From contig LCQS01000006.1 in the NCBI GenBank assembly GCA_001004265.1, positions 1 through 44,801 on the forward strand: 44,801 nt of DNA, in the 5' to 3' direction. Position 1 is the stretch's first letter. Each line of letters opens with the position of its first letter. Below the pieces are notes generated by a model. That model searched no databases and was not told the origin of the DNA. It saw nothing but the letters and a program-made list of their open reading frames with translations. The stretch is from Parcubacteria group bacterium GW2011_GWA2_51_10. Its GTDB lineage: Bacteria; Patescibacteriota; Minisyncoccia; Phycocordibacterales; UBA2100. Position numbers and translations under genes: made by a program. Shown piece after piece: positions 3,348 to 44,026 of the stretch.

Positions 3348-4652
3348 ATGAATTACAAAGTAATCGGTGGAAAGAAGTTGCGCGGCACCGTGCGCACTAA
3401 TATTTCTAAGAATGCTTCAGTTGCGCTTATTGCTGCAGCGCTTCTCAATAAGGGCGAGACGATTCTCAAGCGCGTCCCACGTATCGAAGAAGTGAAGCGC
3501 ATGATTGAAGTTATGGAGTCCATCGGTGTGAAAATCGTTTGGGATCCGAGCGGCGACATGCGCATCATTCCGCCCGGGAAAGTAGATCTCACGAAGCTTA
3601 ACCGCGAAGCGGCAGAGCGGACGCGCAGCATCGTGCATTTTATCGCTCCGCTTGCTCATCTGTTTAAGTCGTTCGAGTTGCCGGCCCCAGCAGGATGCAA
3701 TTTAGGTAAGCGAACCCTGGGCCCGCACATTGATGCTTTTGCCCGGCTCGGAATTTCTGTTACTGCGAATCCTGAAACGCATTCGTATCACGTCGAAGTA
3801 GGTAGCTTACAGCCGGCGGAGATTGTCATGTACGAAGCGAGCGACACTGGTACCGAAGATGTCTTGATGGCGGCTGCCAAAATTCCTGGAACGACTATCA
3901 TAAAATTCGCGAGTGCGAATTATATGGTGCAGGATCTGTGCATATTTCTAAGACGCTGCGGCGTGAAGATCGAAGGTGTAGGAACCTCTACATTAGTCGT
4001 GCACGGGTTGGCAGACATCCATGGAGAGATTCACGGTCACCCAAGCGAGGATCCGATCGAATCCATGTTCTTTATTTCGCTCGCGGCAACTACCGGCTCG
4101 GAAATTACCATCGAACGGTGTCCGATGGATTTTCTTGAGCTGGAACTTTTCACACTTCAGCAAATGGGGCTTCAGTATGAGCGAGGCGAATCATATGCGT
4201 CCGAAAACGGGCACACTGTTCTGCGCGATATTTCGATTAAGAAATCCGAACTTGTCAGCCCTCCGGAAAAGATCGCACCGCGGCCGTATCCGGGAATAAA
4301 TATTGACAACCTGCCTTTTTTTGTACCTGTTGCGACGCAGGCTAAAGGAGAAACTCTCATACACGATTGGGTATACGACGGCAGAGCGCAATATTACTTG
4401 GAAATGAACCATCTGGGCGCGAATATTCAACTACTCGATCAGCACCGCGCGCTTGTGAAAGGTCCGACGAAGCTTCACGCGGCAAAAGTGCAGGCGCCGC
4501 AGGCGCTTCGCCCCGCGACGCTTCTTTTAATAGGAATGCTCGCGGCGGAAGGTGAATCGATGCTTATGGATGTGTATCCTATAAACCGCGGATATGAGAA
4601 TTTGCACGAGCGATTGAAGGCAATCGGCGCGTCCGTTGACGCAGTCGAGTAG
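3348..4652 (+). CDS. murA: UDP-N-acetylglucosamine 1-carboxyvinyltransferase
   Basis: SKNAS, PAGCNLGKR (catalytic Cys), DPIE, INRGYENL motifs. Confidence 0.93.
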   Translation: MNYKVIGGKKLRGTVRTNISKNASVALIAAALLNKGETILKRVPRIEEVKRMIEVMESIGVKIVWDPSGDMRIIPPGKVDLTKLNREAAERTRSIVHFIAPLAHLFKSFELPAPAGCNLGKRTLGPHIDAFARLGISVTANPETHSYHVEVGSLQPAEIVMYEASDTGTEDVLMAAAKIPGTTIIKFASANYMVQDLCIFLRRCGVKIEGVGTSTLVVHGLADIHGEIHGHPSEDPIESMFFISLAATTGSEITIERCPMDFLELELFTLQQMGLQYERGESYASENGHTVLRDISIKKSELVSPPEKIAPRPYPGINIDNLPFFVPVATQAKGETLIHDWVYDGRAQYYLEMNHLGANIQLLDQHRALVKGPTKLHAAKVQAPQALRPATLLLIGMLAAEGESMLMDVYPINRGYENLHERLKAIGASVDAVE

Positions 4653-4653
4653 C

Positions 4654-5313
4654 ATGAATAAACCGAAGTTGATCGTTTTTGCATCTGGCACAAAAGACGG
4701 CGGCGGATCCGGTTTTGAGAATCTTGTACACGCATCGTGGGACGGCATTCTCGACGCCGAGATCGTTGCCGTCGTTTCTAATAATGAGCATGGGGGCGTT
4801 CACGAACGTGCCAACCGGCTTGGGATTCACTTTGTGTATTTCTCCGGTCCATATGATGCAGGAAGCTACGAACGAATTGTCGCCAATGCTGATGCAGAAT
4901 GGGTTGCACTTTCCGGCTGGCTTAAGCACGTCAAAGGACTTGATCCAGCAAGAACCTTCAACATTCACCCGACCCTCCTTTCTGAAGCCAGATTCGCCGG
5001 GCTCTACGGACAAAAAGTTCACCAAGCCGTCGCGGACGCTTTAGAAAAAGGAGAGATGACAGAATCCGGACTCTCGATGCATTTTGTTACGGACGAGTAT
5101 GACCGGGGCCCAATCTTTTTTGAATATCGGGTGCCGCTTAAGAAAGGAATGTCCGCAGAAGAGATCGCCAAAGCAGTGAATGTCGAGGAACATCGTTGGC
5201 AGCCGAAAATCACGAACATGGTGGTGCACGGCGAAATCCGCTGGGACGGAAAAGATTCGCAGAGCCTCAATGTCCCAGGAGATTACAAATATTTGCCAAG
5301 ACTCAATGCTTAA
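4654..5313 (+). CDS. purN: Phosphoribosylglycinamide formyltransferase (folate-dependent)
   Basis: VFASG...GGSGF, FNIHP (N/H catalytic residues), [18 protein letters not shown]; ATG 1 nt after the murA stop. Confidence 0.85.
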
Positions 5314-6490
5314 GAATACGGATTTCCTTCGCTGTTCGCATTGCTTTCTTGCGTGCTTCGGCAACGGTTTTGCCGATTGCGAGTGCAACTCCCATTCTGC
5401 GGTGGCCGGGGGAGAGGGGTTTTCCGAAAATGCGGACCCATGTACCAGGCGCTTTGAGAGCTTTTTCTACTCCCGTATAAGTTGGATTGTCGGTTTTAAT
5501 ATCTGCCAGCAGCGCTACCGACGCGCCAGGTCGGCAAGGAATTTCGGGAATCGGGAGTCCCAAAATCGCTCGCACATGAAGTTCCATTTCACTCATTGTC
5601 TGAGAAACCATCGTCACCATTCCCGTGTCATGTGGGCGCGGCGAAAGTTCTGAAAAGAAAACATCGTCTCCTTTTATAAAGAGTTCAACGCCAAAAATGC
5701 CGCGGCCTTTTGTGCCGCACAGTTCATTTACTATCTTGCGCGCAATTGCTTGCGCCTTTTTAAGAACGGCGGGCTTCATCGGATGCGGTTGCCAGCTCTC
5801 GCGATAGTCGCCATCGATCTGGATGTGTCCCACTGGCGCGCAAAAACTTATGCCGCCCGCATGTCGCACCGTTAGCAGGGTTATTTCATAATCGAATTTG
5901 ATCTGCCCTTCAACAATCACTCGGCCAGTTTTGCCACGTCCTGTTTTCATGGCTGTTTCCCAAGCTTTTTTAAGCTCCCTTTCATTTTTTACTTTGCTCT
6001 GCCCGTGCCCGGAAGACGACATCGTCGGCTTCACAAAGCAAGGGAATCCGACGTCGAGCGCGCCCTTCTCCAACTCTTCGAGACTTCCTGCAAAATGATA
6101 CGGCGAGGTAGGCAGCTTCAGTTTCTCCGCTGCAAGTTTGCGAATTCCCTCTCGATCCATCGTGAGACGGACTGCTCTCGCGGTTGGAATAACTGTCCAA
6201 CCTTCCTTTTCCAACTCCACGAGAGTAGAAGTTGCAATTGCTTCTATCTCCGGAACGATGTATGCTGGCTTTTCTTTCTCTACGACTCGCCGGATATTTT
6301 TGCCTTCAAGCATCGGAAACACATAACTTCTGTGAGCGATCTGCATCGCCGGTGCATTTTCATATCTGTCGCATGCGACAACTTCAACGCCGAGTCGCAT
6401 CGCCTCTATTGCGACCTCGCGACCCAACTCGCCGCTTCCCAGAAGCAATATTTTGATTGCATTTGGCTTCAACGGCGTCCCGAATTTCAT
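5303..6490 (-). CDS. purT: Formate-dependent GAR transformylase (ATP-grasp)
   Basis: [53 protein letters not shown]; start MKFGTPL at 6490. Confidence 0.95.
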
Positions 6491-6569
6491 AGTCCGGATA
6501 GTACCATAGCAGGAATTTGAGGTGAATTTACATGCTAGGGTTAATGCAGCTTTGTTCAAGGAGATTCAC

Positions 6570-7909: not shown

Positions 7910-8626
7910 TTATCTAAGTACTTTCAGCAGCGGATAGTAGAGATCCATTTTTGACGGTATCGTGATTTTTTTCCATGTCGGTGTGTTCGTGAATCTCATA
8001 TTTTTTTCACCGCGCAGTATCACGATCGGCGTTCGCTCATCCGTCTCGCCCATATAGAAAACCGCGGCAGCCGAAAGCGCATCAACGACATTCACTCTTG
8101 TATGCTGCAATTTTCTTCCGAACACGTCAGGCGAGCCGCGACGGTCTCTCACCGGTTCGAGCCCGAAGAATCCTATTGAGATTCCTATAACGCCGTTTCG
8201 GAGTGGCATCGTGTGGCTATCGGTTATCACAACGGCGAGTTTTCTTAGACGAGATTTCTTTTTTAGATACATGCATATTTTTTTTGCAGATCCGCTCGCG
8301 TCTTTTGGCCAAAGAATGTAGTAGCCATTCCCGTTGCTCTCATCAATTCCGGCGGAGGGAATGAGCGTTGAGCCCTTGATCGTGGGCACGAAATCGCTGT
8401 GCAGAGTGCGAAACGGGAAAAGTCGTTCGGCTTCGCGGCGGATGAGTTCCGATTTGCGCGTGCCTTTTTCTATCTTCACGCACCTTCCCTGATGGATCGC
8501 GAGAATCTTGGATGTGATAAATACAATGTCTCCCTCACGGAGGCGCGGCAGAAATTTATCCAGAACAGTGTAAATATCATCCTGCGGAGGCAGGATGCGT
8601 CGCGTTCGTATAGAGAGGAATCGCAT
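7910..8626 (-). CDS. CofE-family gamma-glutamyl ligase (Chlamydia CT611/FolC2-like)
   Basis: EGDIVFITSKI, PSAGIDESN, VITDS, DVFGRKL and MGE..E.TP motifs of the F420-0:glutamate ligase fold. Confidence 0.85.
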   Translation of the reverse strand: MRFLSIRTRRILPPQDDIYTVLDKFLPRLREGDIVFITSKILAIHQGRCVKIEKGTRKSELIRREAERLFPFRTLHSDFVPTIKGSTLIPSAGIDESNGNGYYILWPKDASGSAKKICMYLKKKSRLRKLAVVITDSHTMPLRNGVIGISIGFFGLEPVRDRRGSPDVFGRKLQHTRVNVVDALSAAAVFYMGETDERTPIVILRGEKNMRFTNTPTWKKITIPSKMDLYYPLLKVLR

Positions 8627-8629
8627 TCT

Positions 8630-9325
8630 CTAGAGCGCGGACTTTTCTCGGAGTTGCGTGAGAACGTGCTCTTGTTGCACGGGGAGCTTAAGTGAGAATT
8701 CTAGCTTTTTGTTCAGTAATGCGAATACATTGTTCAAGACGAGGTAGGAAACTGCGATACCTGCGGCAAAGATGAGGCGTTCCATTATCACGACGGGAAT
8801 GAGGCCTACCCACACCGCGGCAGGGAGTGGAACGAGCCAGATCCATAGTGCTCCCCCGACAGAGTGGGCCATAAATGTTGCGCCAAGTGCGCGTGCGACG
8901 AGGAATCGTTCTTGAAAGAAGTAACATATGATCGGGATTGTCCAGAACAAAGAGAAGTACCACACTTCGCGGCCCACCGGATTTGCGACGAATGCGATGA
9001 TCGCGAGAGCAGGGACAATAATGTTGAGCGGCATTTTTCTCGAGAAGTAGATCGCCGCGAAGATCATCGGAATCAGACGGACGAACGTGCCGGTGTCAGA
9101 CCAGTCTGCTCCTTGGAAAATGAAATTCCCTGCTTGCATAAGAAGCACTGCAGCCGCTCCCGGGAGTGTTCCAAGAAATGCCCCCGCCGTCGGTCCGAAG
9201 GCGTCGAAGAGCGTAAAACTTACTTTGGATCCCGCGAGTTGATTTACCGGAATCTGCAGAGCAATGAATCCGATAATGACAAATAGAGCAAAAAAGACCG
9301 CCCTTTTAATATGTTGTTGCTGCAT
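8630..9325 (-). CDS. ECF transporter S-component-like membrane protein
   Basis: 231 aa with ~6-7 TM segments; S-component-like N-terminus (SFTLFDAFGPTAGAFLG..PGA); 3 nt gap to the ligase gene. Confidence 0.65.
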   Translation of the reverse strand: MQQQHIKRAVFFALFVIIGFIALQIPVNQLAGSKVSFTLFDAFGPTAGAFLGTLPGAAAVLLMQAGNFIFQGADWSDTGTFVRLIPMIFAAIYFSRKMPLNIIVPALAIIAFVANPVGREVWYFSLFWTIPIICYFFQERFLVARALGATFMAHSVGGALWIWLVPLPAAVWVGLIPVVIMERLIFAAGIAVSYLVLNNVFALLNKKLEFSLKLPVQQEHVLTQLREKSAL

Positions 9326-9381
9326 GCTGATCTCAAAATAATGAATAATGCCGACACTTTATCATACTCCTGCACGGGCGA

Positions 9382-11568
9382 CTACCGGCGATTGCGCATC
9401 CGGTGCACCGCATCTGCCGCGAGCGGAATGGCTTTCCATAGAATATATACGATTGCGAGGAGAACGAACAGGTACAGCAATAAAGAAATCCAGTCGATCT
9501 CTGCCGGGGAGTTGCCGACTGCTGCTGCGGCCGCGACTTGGTTGCTTGTCGTTGCTGTGATTGGCATAACCGCGTGCGCGTTTTCGATCACAGCGACAAT
9601 AGGCGGGCCGATCGTCGCTCTCGCTCCGCTCGTTGTTGCGTTCGTGCGGGAGTGCGCTAAGACAGGCACGAGCTGCGGTGCTTCTTGGCGGTCGGTCGTC
9701 TCGATCACTATGTCGATCGTTGTTGTAGCTGCTCCCAACACGAGAGGCGTCGATGTGGCTTGGTCGGGAGTTGTCGTGGCGACGGACGGTGCCGCGCCTC
9801 CGCCTCCACCCCCTTCGTTTACAATTGGCTTCTGGTAATTCGAAAGGAGCGACCTCCATGTATTATTGAGCGCGGCCGGAATAGCATATTCTGTTGCCCA
9901 TACGCGCGTATCCGCTGTCGCGGCGGATTCGACACCACCGTCTTGTGCCTGAAGAGACGCGAGATAGGTAATGGGCGTAATTCCGCCGGGCGTCCAAAGT
10001 GACGGTGATTCATTGAGCGCCGCTATTGCCTGCAGCGTCCAGCTGGTAGAGAAACTGTTTCCAAACCCGCCGTTTTGCTGCTGCTGTCCGCGCAAATAGG
10101 TCTGCGCTTTTGTGAGCGATTCGCCGACATTCTGAAGCGAATTCAGCATACTGAGTGCTTGGACAGCGGCGGCAGTAACGTCGACGCTATTTTCCCAAGA
10201 GCCGTTCGCACTTTGACGCGAAATGATGAAAGATGTGGTTTTTACAATGATGTCATCGGATACGCTGTATCCCGCATGAAGCAGCGGAAAGATTGCGAAT
10301 ATGTCATCGTTTACGAGCGATGAATCGCCAATTTGAGCGCCGTCGAATTGTGCTGCGATCGGCGAAATGTAATCGATCGGAGTTCCCGTGTACGGATCGA
10401 TCGCGAGCGCCATGAGGGCCATTGCATGCCTCTCATAATCCGTCGCGCTCGATACGACGGGCGCTGCGGTTAATAGGTATTCCCATAGCTTTGTCTTAGG
10501 TATTCCCGGATCGCTTGCCGCGAATGCGATTGCTGCCCAGTCTGTGAGCAGAGTGTTCGCAAATGACCCATCTTCTCTCTGCTGTGAGGCAATAAATTGG
10601 AGTGCAAGGGGCACATTAAAAACCGGCGCTAAAGACGACCCCCCACTGCTCCCTCCGCCACCACCGCTCCCCCTGCTTGTTTCCTCCTCTTTCGGAAGCG
10701 TCGGCGGTTCATCCTCTTCCGGAGTAGAAGTTGCCGCAGGGTCAACGACTGCAATTGATACAGTCGGAAAGTAAAAATCTTCTTGAATGCCGACGGAGAA
10801 TGTTCCCGTTGCTGTGAGCGCAAATAGTGCTGCGCCGTTTTCGTCGCTCGTGCTTGTTGCGAGCTCGGTAAAAGTGAAGTCGGGATTCGGAGTGCCGACT
10901 CCTATCGTGAGGCCCGGCGCTCCTACATAAATGCCCGATGCAAGCTCATAATTTTGCGCGGTTGCCGTGAACGACTCTCCGGAAGCAATCGTTGTTGTAG
11001 AAAGCACAACTTGACGAGACGGGCCGAAGAAAAGAAATGCGGTGTCGCCATTGTTTAGGACGTAATCATCAATGCCCATTTGAGGGTAAGAGCCGTTCAC
11101 TGCATACGTCCAGTTAAAGCATTGCGGCTCGTCAACGCCAGAAACCGCGATGCAGTTTATGAGAAATGATGAAAATGAAGAAAAATATGCAAGATCAGTG
11201 ATAGCGAATGCATCGGATTCGGCATCGAGTTCTACGAGCTCTGCCAATAAACTGCGGGCAGGCACCGGAACAGCATCGCCCCCTCCTGTGGGGATGATCG
11301 AGACGTCGGGAGAAGTTGACGCTGCTAATTCAACGATTCCACTAAACGCAGTTGCGGAGCCATCACGGATTGTGAGCGTGAATGTGTCGGAGGGAAGGAC
11401 AGGTGCCGTATCAGTTGATGTTGCCGCTTCGTCCGTTGTGGTGGCAATCTCCAACTGCGATTCACTGGATGACTCCGGAGTTGAAGAAGCGCTTTCGTCT
11501 GCGAAGAGGGATGAGAAGGGCACGCCGATGATAAAAAGACCAATTACGATTGCTCGAACAAATTTCAT
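9382..11568 (-). CDS. Surface-anchored DUF4430 + Ig-like + prenyltransferase/squalene-cyclase-like alpha/alpha-barrel protein (putative cobalamin binder)
   Basis: Signal peptide; DUF4430-like FLINCIA...WTYAVNG..PQMGIDDYVLNNGD; repeated Q..DGSF/Q..NGSW/Q..NGGF/Q..DGG barrel motifs; S/T/G linkers; C-terminal TM. Confidence 0.8.
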   Translation of the reverse strand: MKFVRAIVIGLFIIGVPFSSLFADESASSTPESSSESQLEIATTTDEAATSTDTAPVLPSDTFTLTIRDGSATAFSGIVELAASTSPDVSIIPTGGGDAVPVPARSLLAELVELDAESDAFAITDLAYFSSFSSFLINCIAVSGVDEPQCFNWTYAVNGSYPQMGIDDYVLNNGDTAFLFFGPSRQVVLSTTTIASGESFTATAQNYELASGIYVGAPGLTIGVGTPNPDFTFTELATSTSDENGAALFALTATGTFSVGIQEDFYFPTVSIAVVDPAATSTPEEDEPPTLPKEEETSRGSGGGGGSSGGSSLAPVFNVPLALQFIASQQREDGSFANTLLTDWAAIAFAASDPGIPKTKLWEYLLTAAPVVSSATDYERHAMALMALAIDPYTGTPIDYISPIAAQFDGAQIGDSSLVNDDIFAIFPLLHAGYSVSDDIIVKTTSFIISRQSANGSWENSVDVTAAAVQALSMLNSLQNVGESLTKAQTYLRGQQQQNGGFGNSFSTSWTLQAIAALNESPSLWTPGGITPITYLASLQAQDGGVESAATADTRVWATEYAIPAALNNTWRSLLSNYQKPIVNEGGGGGGAAPSVATTTPDQATSTPLVLGAATTTIDIVIETTDRQEAPQLVPVLAHSRTNATTSGARATIGPPIVAVIENAHAVMPITATTSNQVAAAAAVGNSPAEIDWISLLLYLFVLLAIVYILWKAIPLAADAVHRMRNRR

Positions 11569-11592
11569 ATCGCACGCGTTAAAATTAAATAC

Positions 11593-12001
11593 TTAATAAC
11601 TTTGCTGGTACCTCCATTCAACCGTATCGCCGGCCTTGAGTGTCGTTTGAGAAGCCCCCGTATTTGAAGATTCGTCGTTCACGTATAAGAACCAGTAAGA
11701 GCCGCCCGCGTTTTTCCTTCCTGCCTGCGCAGGTGCTCGTGTCGGTTGCGGTAAAAGTAAAGGAATTTGCCTGCGCGGAAGGGATCCGTTCCTCCGGGGG
11801 TTTAATCTCCGGAGAGGTTGCGTTTTTTTCTGGAGCGGAAGATTCGCTTGTAGTTCCTTGAGGGGCCAAAACATCAGAGGCCTTCTCGATTGATTGGGAA
11901 ACTGGCCTCGAGTACGAAATAAATACTTTCTGGGAAAAGTATGCGGCGGCACCAAGCACGGCAACCGTAATTATGAGTGCTGTATATTGTTTCAAGTTCA
12001 T
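11593..12001 (-). pseudogene. Membrane-anchored DUF4430 protein, frameshifted with an apparent deletion near 11715-11735
   Basis: N-terminal TM and linker in one frame (MNLKQY...TATDTST); the DUF4430 end GSYWFLYVNDESSNTGASQTTLKAGDTVEWRY is in another; the expected middle of the domain is missing. Confidence 0.75.
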
Positions 12002-12014
12002 ATGTATCGGAAAC

Positions 12015-12043
12015 TAAAAAATCTCTGCCCGATGCAGAGATTT
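12015..12043 (-). terminator. Intrinsic terminator (riboswitch expression platform)
   Basis: Minus strand AAATCTCTGC-ATCGG-GCAGAGATTT-TTT, just upstream of the ATG at 12001. Confidence 0.75.
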
Positions 12044-12087
12044 CTTATTGACGGCACTTATGTTCAGCGCGCACCCTGCTCGGGATA

Positions 12088-12223
12088 ACGGCTGAAGAAG
12101 ATCGGACTTATCCCGACATTATGTAGGGACATACCGTTGCGGCACAGTGGAGGAATCACACCTCACTTCCAGCCCGCCTTTTTCTAACTGGCGGGCCCCA
12201 CCTTTCGGTGAGCAATCAACCAT
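12088..12223 (-). ncRNA. Cobalamin (B12) riboswitch
   Basis: Minus strand GGAAGTGAGGTGTGATTCCTCCACTGTGCCGCAACGGTA...AAGTCCGA matches the cobalamin aptamer core and B12 box; closing helix GGTTGA/TCAGCC; lies upstream of DUF4430 genes. Confidence 0.82.
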
Positions 12224-12231
12224 GGATGCGC

Positions 12232-12259
12232 ATTGTATTCCTGTCGAAGACAGGGGCAA
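12232..12259 (-). promoter_or_regulatory. Promoter for the riboswitch-led cluster
   Basis: TTGCCC-16 nt-TACAAT ending about 8 nt before the aptamer. Confidence 0.55.
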
Positions 12260-43761: not shown

Positions 43762-43900
43762 GACGCTGTTGGCAACAAGGCTTCGCAAGACCCCGAATCT
43801 AAGGTAGGAATGGAGCCGTAGCAGATGGCTACAGTTCTTGTGTACAATTAGCAAATCGACCTAACCCTCGGAGCTCACGCTCCAAGATATGGTCGTAAAT

Positions 43901-44026
43901 CCTTCCCAGCTGAAAGCTCCTCGTCAAGAGCACCTGGGAAGGTCCCTCCGGGAAACTGGAGGTGGGTGGCTTCGGCCATCGCTTGGCGGGGAGTTTTTTG
44001 TTTCCCGCCACAAAACCTTCCCAGGT
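43901..44026. ncRNA. Highly structured non-coding segment (candidate cis-regulatory RNA, sRNA or ssDNA structure)
   Basis: 12-bp perfect helix ACCTGGGAAGGT/ACCTTCCCAGGT enclosing three hairpins, plus a competing CCTTCCCAG at 43901-43909. Confidence 0.5.

Follow-up and report, generated by a model that had tools for sequence, protein, structure and literature searches.

A locus probably devoted to the salvage of two vitamins was analyzed in a stretch of 44,801 nucleotides (nt), hereafter the window, which corresponds to positions 1 to 44,801 of contig LCQS01000006.1 from Parcubacteria group bacterium GW2011_GWA2_51_10 (assembly GCA_001004265.1; 711,659 bp in 25 contigs, 79% complete). The closest protein relatives bear Kaiserbacteria and other Patescibacteria names. 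The locus runs on the minus strand from 12259 to 7910, with murD on the plus strand at the end away from 7910. A leader resembling adenosylcobalamin (AdoCbl) riboswitches is followed by genes for a small DUF4430 protein, a 728-amino-acid (aa) surface protein, a 231-aa membrane protein, and a 238-aa CofE-family ligase. An earlier interpretation made from the DNA letters alone (the sequence-only reading) had recognized the four co-oriented genes, which are confirmed here (Table 1), and had taken them as one vitamin B12 capture system. The locus is most likely made up of two modules, for B12 capture and for folate, rather than of a single system. The favored explanation, to which a probability of about 0.58 is given, is that two vitamin-salvage modules were joined once into a composite locus, in which B12 enters through a protein encoded on contig 3, and the 231-aa protein and the ligase salvage folate.

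Fold, relatives, and gene neighborhood of the 231-aa protein

The 231-aa protein was modeled with AlphaFold2 (AF2) at a predicted local distance difference test (pLDDT) score of 88.3 and a predicted template modeling (pTM) score of 0.85. In a comparison with 48,161 chains, the top 15 were all S-components of energy-coupling factor (ECF) transporters, with Z 8.4–11.9 and 149–179 residues aligned, and the next row was an unrelated structure with Z 7.4 and 94 residues. The S-component-like fold proposed in the sequence-only reading is thus confirmed by structure comparison. By sequence, the protein stands outside the described S-component families: no Pfam or NCBIfam family was found at E ≤ 0.1, a profile search of the PDB returned 0 sequences at E ≤ 10, and Foldseek with the model gave no match at E ≤ 0.001. 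A search for the family gave 943 homologs at E ≤ 0.001, and every name given to them is of a Patescibacteria type. EcfT (PF02361) was found in 0/4 genomes searched, three of them at least 98% complete. This agrees with the lack of an ECF T subunit remarked on earlier for the window, and fits a solitary type of S-component.

BtuM from Thiobacillus denitrificans, described in the accessible text of PMC6072759 as a solitary S-component-type B12 transporter, shares the fold (Z 8.8) and is a parallel for genomes without EcfT. The 231-aa protein is 8% identical to BtuM, however, and BioY (Z 11.9), RibU (10.9), and FolT (10.6) match better, while the gene context points to folate. FolT, the ECF folate S-component (PDB 5d0y and 4z7f; Z 10.6 and 9.7), is alike in fold and in proposed substrate. 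It differs in that no sequence match is seen, the 231-aa protein is longer (231 vs. about 160–170 residues), and no EcfT or dedicated ATPase was found.

The gene neighborhood was surveyed in 80 loci of 231-aa gene homologs, 54 of which have at least 2.5 kb on both flanks (below, L numbers denote loci and G numbers genomes). Within 3 kb of the homolog, a CofE/FolC2-type ligase gene was found in 55/80 loci and in 40 of the 54 both-flank loci (39 on the same strand), a RibD_C/DHFR-like gene in 45/80 and 34/54 (profile matches PF01872 at 7 × 10−15 and PF00186 at 8 × 10−10), and an ATP-grasp ligase gene in 23/80 and 17/54. B12-binder genes were found in 3/80 and 2/54, and 11 loci have none of the counted neighbor types. 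The usual pair can be replaced by other folate enzymes, as is seen within these 11 loci. Canonical FolC adjoins the 231-aa homolog in L072, L084, and L080 (TIGR01499: 313.6, 298.8, and 247.3 bits; cut-off 162.65), and a TmpR-like dihydropteridine/dihydrofolate reductase precedes it in L072, L084, and L083 (NF012208: 213.7, 166.1, and 207.6 bits). The 231-aa family is 55–78% identical across these contexts, which argues for a single substrate. Two unrelated families of folate-glutamate ligase and two unrelated families of folate reductase alternate beside it, and this is the pattern of a folate carrier. On the strength of this neighborhood across Patescibacteria, the 231-aa protein is most likely a folate carrier. 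The sequence-only reading, which gives it the role of B12 permease and assigns the ligase to one system with it, is not upheld by these counts, nor by the replacement of the usual pair with FolC and TmpR-like reductases, nor by the B12 clusters elsewhere, which use DUF6580 or a related family.

The ligase gene starts 3 nt past the stop of the 231-aa gene. Of the NCBIfam models, TIGR04132 ("putative folate metabolism gamma-glutamate ligase") fits the ligase best, with 217.1 bits, and the score against CofE (F420-0:gamma-glutamyl ligase, TIGR01916) is 129.8 bits, below the cut-off of 180.65. We know of no role for a glutamate ligase in B12 use. CT611 (COG1478), a CofE homolog from Chlamydia trachomatis, complements an E. 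coli folC mutant according to the accessible part of PMC1971073. FolC2 proteins (CT611; TIGR04132) are CofE-family ligases encoded beside folate genes in an organism without canonical FolC, and the 238-aa ligase is in the same situation: no canonical FolC was detected in this genome by tblastn, and the ligase clusters with folate genes, as the DHFR-like member of the module shows (34/54 loci). The difference is that the partner of the 238-aa ligase is a transporter, not the folKP/folA genes found with CT611.

The genome encodes the folate-using enzymes GlyA (497 bits) and ThyA (312 bits) as well as a dCTP deaminase, and a PurN-like gene is present in the window. FolP was found in 0/5 genomes searched. 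Judged from gene content, the genome uses folate without making it. A literature search on folate transport or salvage in the Candidate Phyla Radiation (CPR) listed no work recognizable as being on such a system.

Riboswitch-like leader and putative B12-binder genes

The leader is matched by RF01482 (AdoCbl; clan CL00101) with 40.1 bits and an E-value of 1.2 × 10−5 over model positions 23–98 of 149. The gathering cut-off is 50 bits, which leaves the window leader below it, whereas the orthologous leaders of L010 (53.0 bits) and L013 (52.3 bits; full model 1–149) are above it. The leader of G056, a genome of the same genus, scores 43.6 bits, and the leader of L011 has no riboswitch match at E ≤ 0.05. 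In the whole genome, this leader is the sole RF01482 match (E = 1.9 × 10−6), and RF00174 has no match at E ≤ 0.001. At Rfam gathering scores, the whole window contains four matches, none of them to a cobalamin family. Leaders from 20 of the 24 loci with an RF01482 match, together with those of G111, G061, G056, and the window, were aligned with MAFFT; the alignment is imperfect at its 5′ end. Among these 24 leaders, 11 of the 16 RNAalifold pairs are retained through changes on both sides, by which the conserved core helices are kept, and the core is near invariant. Considering the scores of the kin leaders and this covariation, the RF01482 match is beyond chance despite the sub-cut-off score. 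A putative B12-responsive leader at the head of the locus is therefore supported, and the cobalamin aptamer of the sequence-only reading stands as an AdoCbl-type leader, with the reservation that its own score does not reach the Rfam cut-off.

The 40-nt core at 12132–12171 recurs, at 90% or more, on dozens of further contigs from three groundwater metagenome runs, where the summed depth reaches about 730. Its presence on many unrelated contigs is expected of a widespread functional RNA. By these sequence matches, related riboswitches are abundant in those groundwater communities.

An intrinsic-terminator-like hairpin lies 13 nt ahead of the first start codon. The terminator proposed earlier is seen in the sequence and in the minimum-energy fold, but it is not among the hits of a simple terminator pattern scan. 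The conserved motif 3′ of the aptamer core is complementary, as read from the sequence, to positions 12028–12037 within this hairpin. This suggests a candidate switching or anti-terminator element, through which terminator or anti-terminator would be chosen. The promoter claimed upstream of the aptamer, TTGCCC-16-TACAAT, is a promoter-like site that stays unproven. A scan of the region gave three such sites against 4.1 ± 1.7 in shuffled sequences, no better than chance.

In its AF2 model (mean pLDDT 79.9), the 728-aa protein consists of a signal-like N-terminus, a beta-grasp (DUF4430/SLBB) and an all-beta domain (~60–280), a Gly-rich linker, an alpha/alpha toroid (~313–580), a disordered Ser/Thr/Ala stalk (587–691), and a membrane helix (693–727). 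Pfam DUF4430 matches it with 24.8 bits (cut-off 23.8) over 25 residues only, and Cobalamin_bind (PF01122) with 24.1 bits, just below the cut-off of 25. In a selection of 38 relatives from 120 listed homologs, DUF4430 was recognized in 29 (best E-value 1.1 × 10−27), SQHop_cyclase_C in 24, and Cobalamin_bind in 13 (E ≤ 0.001). The toroid is similar to intrinsic factor (Z 20.1, 235 residues, root-mean-square deviation (rmsd) 3.1) and to transcobalamin (Z 19.1, 240 residues, rmsd 3.3). The likeness to transcobalamin expected by the sequence-only reading is thus present, but it is exceeded by that to terpene cyclases (Z 23), and the fold alone is no proof of B12 binding.

The genomic context adds to the domain evidence. 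RF01482 was searched for at E ≤ 0.01 in 50 related genomes, a non-random sample picked from 80 for long contigs, of completeness not established. A match was found in 23 genomes, in 10 of them above the cut-off. Of the 24 loci with a match, 14 have, directly downstream, a gene for DUF4430, for a homolog of the 728-aa protein, or for both, and this arrangement is also seen within the window's own order, in L091, L092, L094, and L098. The syntenic site of G056 contains murD/murI, the riboswitch, an intact 188-aa DUF4430 gene, and a toroid protein gene, with no copy of the 231-aa gene and no folate pair. The set of riboswitch and binder genes recurs across Patescibacteria. By its domain types and its B12-regulon context, the 728-aa protein is most likely a transcobalamin-like binder of corrinoids at the cell surface. 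The description of the first two genes as coding for B12-binder-like surface proteins is borne out by the combination of DUF4430/SLBB and an alpha/alpha toroid.

Secreted or anchored bacterial proteins with SLBB and toroid domains were predicted to be extracellular B12 binders by Burroughs, Balaji, Iyer and Aravind in 2007 (PMC1796856, accessible part). In those proteins, the toroid is N- or C-terminal to SLBB, and the hosts are low-GC Gram-positives, planctomycetes, and euryarchaea. Here, SLBB comes first and the toroid second, the host is a member of Patescibacteria, and anchoring would be through a C-terminal membrane helix that follows a long disordered stalk; both are predicted binders. 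The available text of the 2007 paper does not contain the word "riboswitch", whereas the genes here are under an AdoCbl-type riboswitch. The animal carriers transcobalamin and intrinsic factor (PF01122; PDB 2bb5 and 2pmv) have the same two domain types as the 728-aa protein, which differs from them in the reversed domain order and in the extra all-beta domain, the stalk, and the membrane anchor.

It is very unlikely that these riboswitch-controlled surface proteins bind a non-cobalamin ligand, such as another tetrapyrrole or a host-surface glycan, and are merely co-regulated with B12 status. Such a ligand would be compatible with the toroid, for which terpene cyclases, glycoside hydrolases, and complement TED domains are matches as good as B12 carriers or better, with the PF01122 score just below the cut-off, and with the HYR and immunoglobulin-like adhesion domains of relatives. 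Transcobalamin, however, shows the same combination of DUF4430/SLBB and toroid (PMC1796856, accessible part), and the linkage of this combination to AdoCbl riboswitches, RTPR-type reductases, adenosyltransferases, and DUF6580 is constant. As a separate observation, DUF4430 and toroid are apparently fused in one 609-aa frame in L011 (1276–5096), where an upstream 572-aa open reading frame (ORF) is reductase-like by eye.

The small DUF4430 gene is disrupted in the assembly. Its PF14478 match covers profile positions 38–71 of 72 only. The N-terminal membrane anchor (ATG at 12001) is in the frame 12001–11618, and the C-terminal half of DUF4430 is in another frame that extends to 11593. About 35 codons of four intact orthologs (L010, L013, L101, and L103) are without a counterpart in any frame; intact DUF4430 orthologs are 122–188 aa long. 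The "anchored DUF4430 protein" of the sequence-only reading is therefore correct for the anchor and for one half of the domain, but the gene is broken. Public contigs from the three metagenome runs cover 11430–11636 and 11785–12161, and not 11637–11784; they stop on either side of the break, so that a true deletion and an assembly error are indistinguishable in this gene.

The RTPR-type reductase gene of this genome (G000 contig 5, L003 1287–3570) is split into 606-aa and 153-aa frames. It is about 37 codons short compared with G056, a gap like that in the DUF4430 gene, and the gene is uninterrupted in three relatives. The gaps of the same size suggest a systematic assembly fault or parallel decay. 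If the B12 part were decaying here, with true pseudogenes for both DUF4430 and the class II reductase, only the folate pair would be in use. Both genes are indeed 35–37 codons short and frame-changed where the relatives' copies are whole. This explanation is nevertheless quite improbable. Two deletions of equal size, both in stretches of low coverage, resemble the product of faulty assembly, and the public contigs break off exactly where the DUF4430 gene has its gap. The riboswitch core is undamaged, as are the genes for the 728-aa protein and the PduO-type enzyme. Searches with TIGR02504/TIGR02505 showed no further ribonucleotide reductase, and the loss would be lethal unless a replacement is encoded in the missing 21% of the genome.

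B12 use, the candidate permease, and the probable joining of two modules

The B12-dependent enzyme that the sequence-only reading presupposed was found. An RTPR-type class II ribonucleotide reductase is encoded on contig 5 (TIGR02505, 204.3 bits), and a PduO-type adenosyltransferase on contig 17. The B12-binding domain PF02310 has 0 matches in the genome, and thus no MetH-type enzyme is seen. As far as its genes indicate, the genome needs both B12 and folate. A different reductase was noted in L141 (G104/G218 contig 2, 7718–7830), where an AdoCbl-like match of 35.6 bits lies directly ahead of a ribonucleotide reductase-like ORF with an ATP-cone-like start and an open frame of 824 aa. An RTPR-type enzyme is encoded in that genome as well, and the arrangement looks like riboswitch control of a second reductase.

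Other B12 clusters contain different transporter genes. In the operon of G044/L103, the riboswitch, the DUF4430 gene, and the toroid gene are followed by DUF6580. Operons of this kind share their leader and first two genes with the locus here, but the third gene here is a member of the folate-context family, followed by the FolC2-type ligase gene. In G056, a DUF6580 gene comes after those for RTPR and the PduO-type adenosyltransferase. The DUF6580 proteins of G044 and G056 score 144.7 and 126.4 bits. In G219 and G228, DUF6580 is downstream of the riboswitch on the same contig, and the 231-aa homolog is in a separate folate module. A literature search on DUF6580 found nothing.

A family related to DUF6580 was recognized through PF07155 and weak DUF6580 cross-hits. 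Its genes directly follow the AdoCbl match in G061 and G249, and are contiguous with RTPR and B12/adenosyltransferase genes in G214, G221, and G232. The family is also present in G201, G202, and G204 of the window's clade, and its member in this genome is an S-component-like protein encoded on contig 3 (Table 1). From these gene contexts, the contig-3 protein is most likely the B12 permease candidate, and a better one than the 231-aa protein. Mutual exclusion of the 231-aa family and DUF6580, which would favor a B12 role for the former, was considered and rejected, as 17 of the 50 genomes hold both. By tally, 10/50 carriers of the 231-aa gene lack all four of the B12 markers considered.

Among the copies of the 231-aa gene, those of the window, L010, L011, and L013 alone have B12-binder genes upstream; the L012 locus is truncated at a contig end and retains the same spacer ahead of the 231-aa gene. 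The copies from the window, L010, L011, L013, L012, and L018 group together with 100/100 support in a maximum-likelihood tree of 81 copies of the 231-aa family, and their clade is nested among copies with a folate context. This points to a single joining of the modules, in the ancestor of this small Kaiserbacteria-like clade. L018 was rejected as the same operon, with the riboswitch 5.4 kb upstream and three unrelated genes between, and G210 was rejected as a linked case, with the riboswitch and the 231-aa gene on different contigs. In L018 (915–6410) and L105 (3182–8567), an AdoCbl-type match precedes a gene for a 637–639-aa protein without a Pfam family, and the next genes code for proteins of 554–571 aa and 428–448 aa, each with a GKT/GKS-type motif by eye. 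This gene set may belong to the B12 regulon.

The spacer between the 728-aa and the 231-aa genes is 56 nt long. It contains a block that is invariant in the window, L010, L011, and L013, where the flanking coding DNA has diverged, and that is present also in L012. TGnTAnAAT-type elements occur upstream of 231-aa homologs in many other loci. The block is probably a promoter of the folate pair's own, a candidate recognized by sequence conservation.

The position of the 231-aa gene can also be explained by a single B12 system, in which the surface binders would pass corrinoids to the 231-aa protein as a stand-alone S-component with BtuM-like import, and the ligase would be an accessory. This explanation is regarded as unlikely, and yet most of what speaks for it weighs against the composite of two modules. 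Only about 50 nt, with no terminator, separate the toroid gene from the 231-aa gene in the window, L010, L011, and L013, so that the 231-aa gene should be at least partly co-transcribed under the riboswitch in a tight operon; it occupies the exact slot of DUF6580 in the G044 operon. DUF6580 is absent from all five genomes of the window's clade. By tally, 10/50 genomes have the 231-aa gene and an RTPR-like reductase without DUF6580 or its relative, and there the 231-aa protein is the sole S-component-like candidate found. With EcfT in none of the four genomes searched, the 231-aa protein would work alone, as BtuM does, and BtuM is among the structural matches; the fold does not discriminate substrates, FolT and BtuM both being represented. 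A shut-off of folate import under plentiful B12 has no obvious logic. On the side of the folate assignment, the TIGR04132 score of the ligase is under the curated cut-off of 350, the NF012208 scores of the TmpR-like reductases are all below the curated cut-off of 325, and no DHFR-type gene was found in this incomplete genome. On the side of B12 binding, the closeness of the toroid to terpene cyclases counts against the composite as well.

Against the single B12 system stand the neighbors of the 231-aa family as a whole, which are four kinds of folate enzyme and not B12 genes. The co-occurrence of the 231-aa protein and DUF6580 in 17 genomes, with separate modules in G219 and G228, also opposes it, as do the DUF6580-related protein of the clade, the ten carriers of the 231-aa gene without any B12 marker, and a ligase that has no known part in B12 use. 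Operon position favors B12, and family-wide context favors folate. It is possible, though doubtful, that the join of the two modules is functional, with one AdoCbl riboswitch gating both B12 capture and the import and trapping of folate, and with B12 read as a proxy for host supply; in a variant of this idea, the 231-aa family would carry both vitamins.

In the preferred composite of two modules, transcription would end at the hairpin 12043–12015 when AdoCbl is bound. The riboswitch would thereby control the small membrane-anchored DUF4430 protein, whose gene is broken here, and the 728-aa protein, which would hold its DUF4430/SLBB domain and toroid out on the long stalk and capture corrinoids at the surface. 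B12 would cross the membrane through the DUF6580-related protein of contig 3, be adenosylated by the PduO-type enzyme, and be supplied to the class II ribonucleotide reductase. The folate pair would be transcribed from its own promoter in the 56-nt spacer and by read-through from the first module. As their neighborhood indicates, the 231-aa S-component-like protein would import folate, and the FolC2-type ligase would add glutamates and so trap folate in the cell.

Feature coordinates, other features of the window, and significance

Table 1. Features of the locus, listed from the 278-nt leader to the ligase gene in their order on the minus strand, and the candidate B12 permease gene on contig 3.
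Feature	Position	Strand	Evidence
Promoter-like TTGCCC-16-TACAAT, unproven	12232–12259	−	9/12 positions match
Aptamer core, AdoCbl-type cobalamin riboswitch	12094–12175	−	RF01482 match, kin leaders, covariation
Conserved ATCCCGAGCAGG motif 3′ of the aptamer core	12075–12086	−	Kept in most of 24 aligned leaders
Intrinsic-terminator-like hairpin, 10 pairs and T-run	12015–12043	−	Sequence and minimum-energy fold
Small DUF4430 gene, disrupted	11593–12001	−	PF14478, 43.3 bits
728-aa surface-tethered protein	9382–11568	−	Pfam, AF2 model
Conserved spacer block, extended −10-like	9343–9367	−	TGnTAnAGT (9356–9364) and CATTAT (9345–9350)
231-aa membrane protein, ECF S-component fold, candidate folate carrier	8630–9325	−	AF2 model, neighborhood
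238-aa CofE-family gamma-glutamyl ligase, FolC2 type	7910–8626	−	PF01996, 128.3 bits
176-aa S-component-like protein, DUF6580-related	G000 contig 3, 19971–20501 (L149 4971–5501)		PF07155, 26.8 bits; upstream of a 305-aa ORF

Three further features were noted in the window. A LOOT RNA (RF03000) is present at 43858–43980 on the plus strand, with 67.9 bits against a cut-off of 46.4. The 3′ part of a 16S rRNA gene at 1–935 on the plus strand scores only 59.3 bits, and has two large inserts, 222 and 236 nt against 13 and 40 in the model. Large 16S rRNA inserts are common in Patescibacteria. At 4636–6559, a gene for a PurN-like formyltransferase (80.9 bits; cut-off 150) adjoins one for a clear formate-dependent PurT (599.5 bits), and both routes to formylglycinamide ribonucleotide (formyl-GAR) may be kept.

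Literature searches found nothing on cobalamin riboswitches in Patescibacteria and only unrelated work on ribonucleotide reductase and cobalamin in this group. For DUF4430, no bacterial B12-uptake study was apparent from titles and the beginnings of abstracts. These searches agree with the earlier statement that no characterized CPR example is known, but the binder architecture had been predicted for bacteria in 2007 (PMC1796856, accessible part). The B12-capture part alone is not new in this respect. What is particular to this locus is that both modules are fused behind one riboswitch.

Patescibacteria are unable to make most cofactors, and the means by which they acquire them are largely unknown. 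Three candidates for such means are offered here. The first is a surface protein for catching B12 that has the two domain types of the human B12 carriers. The second is an unnamed S-component-like family, the 943 homologs of the 231-aa protein, which is probably the folate carrier of these bacteria, and the third is the DUF6580-related family, probably their B12 permease. A transporter encoded behind a riboswitch need not carry the ligand of that riboswitch, and caution is appropriate when transporters are named by this association. If the join is functional, two vitamins for DNA precursors would be tuned together, B12 for the reductase and folate for thymidylate synthase.

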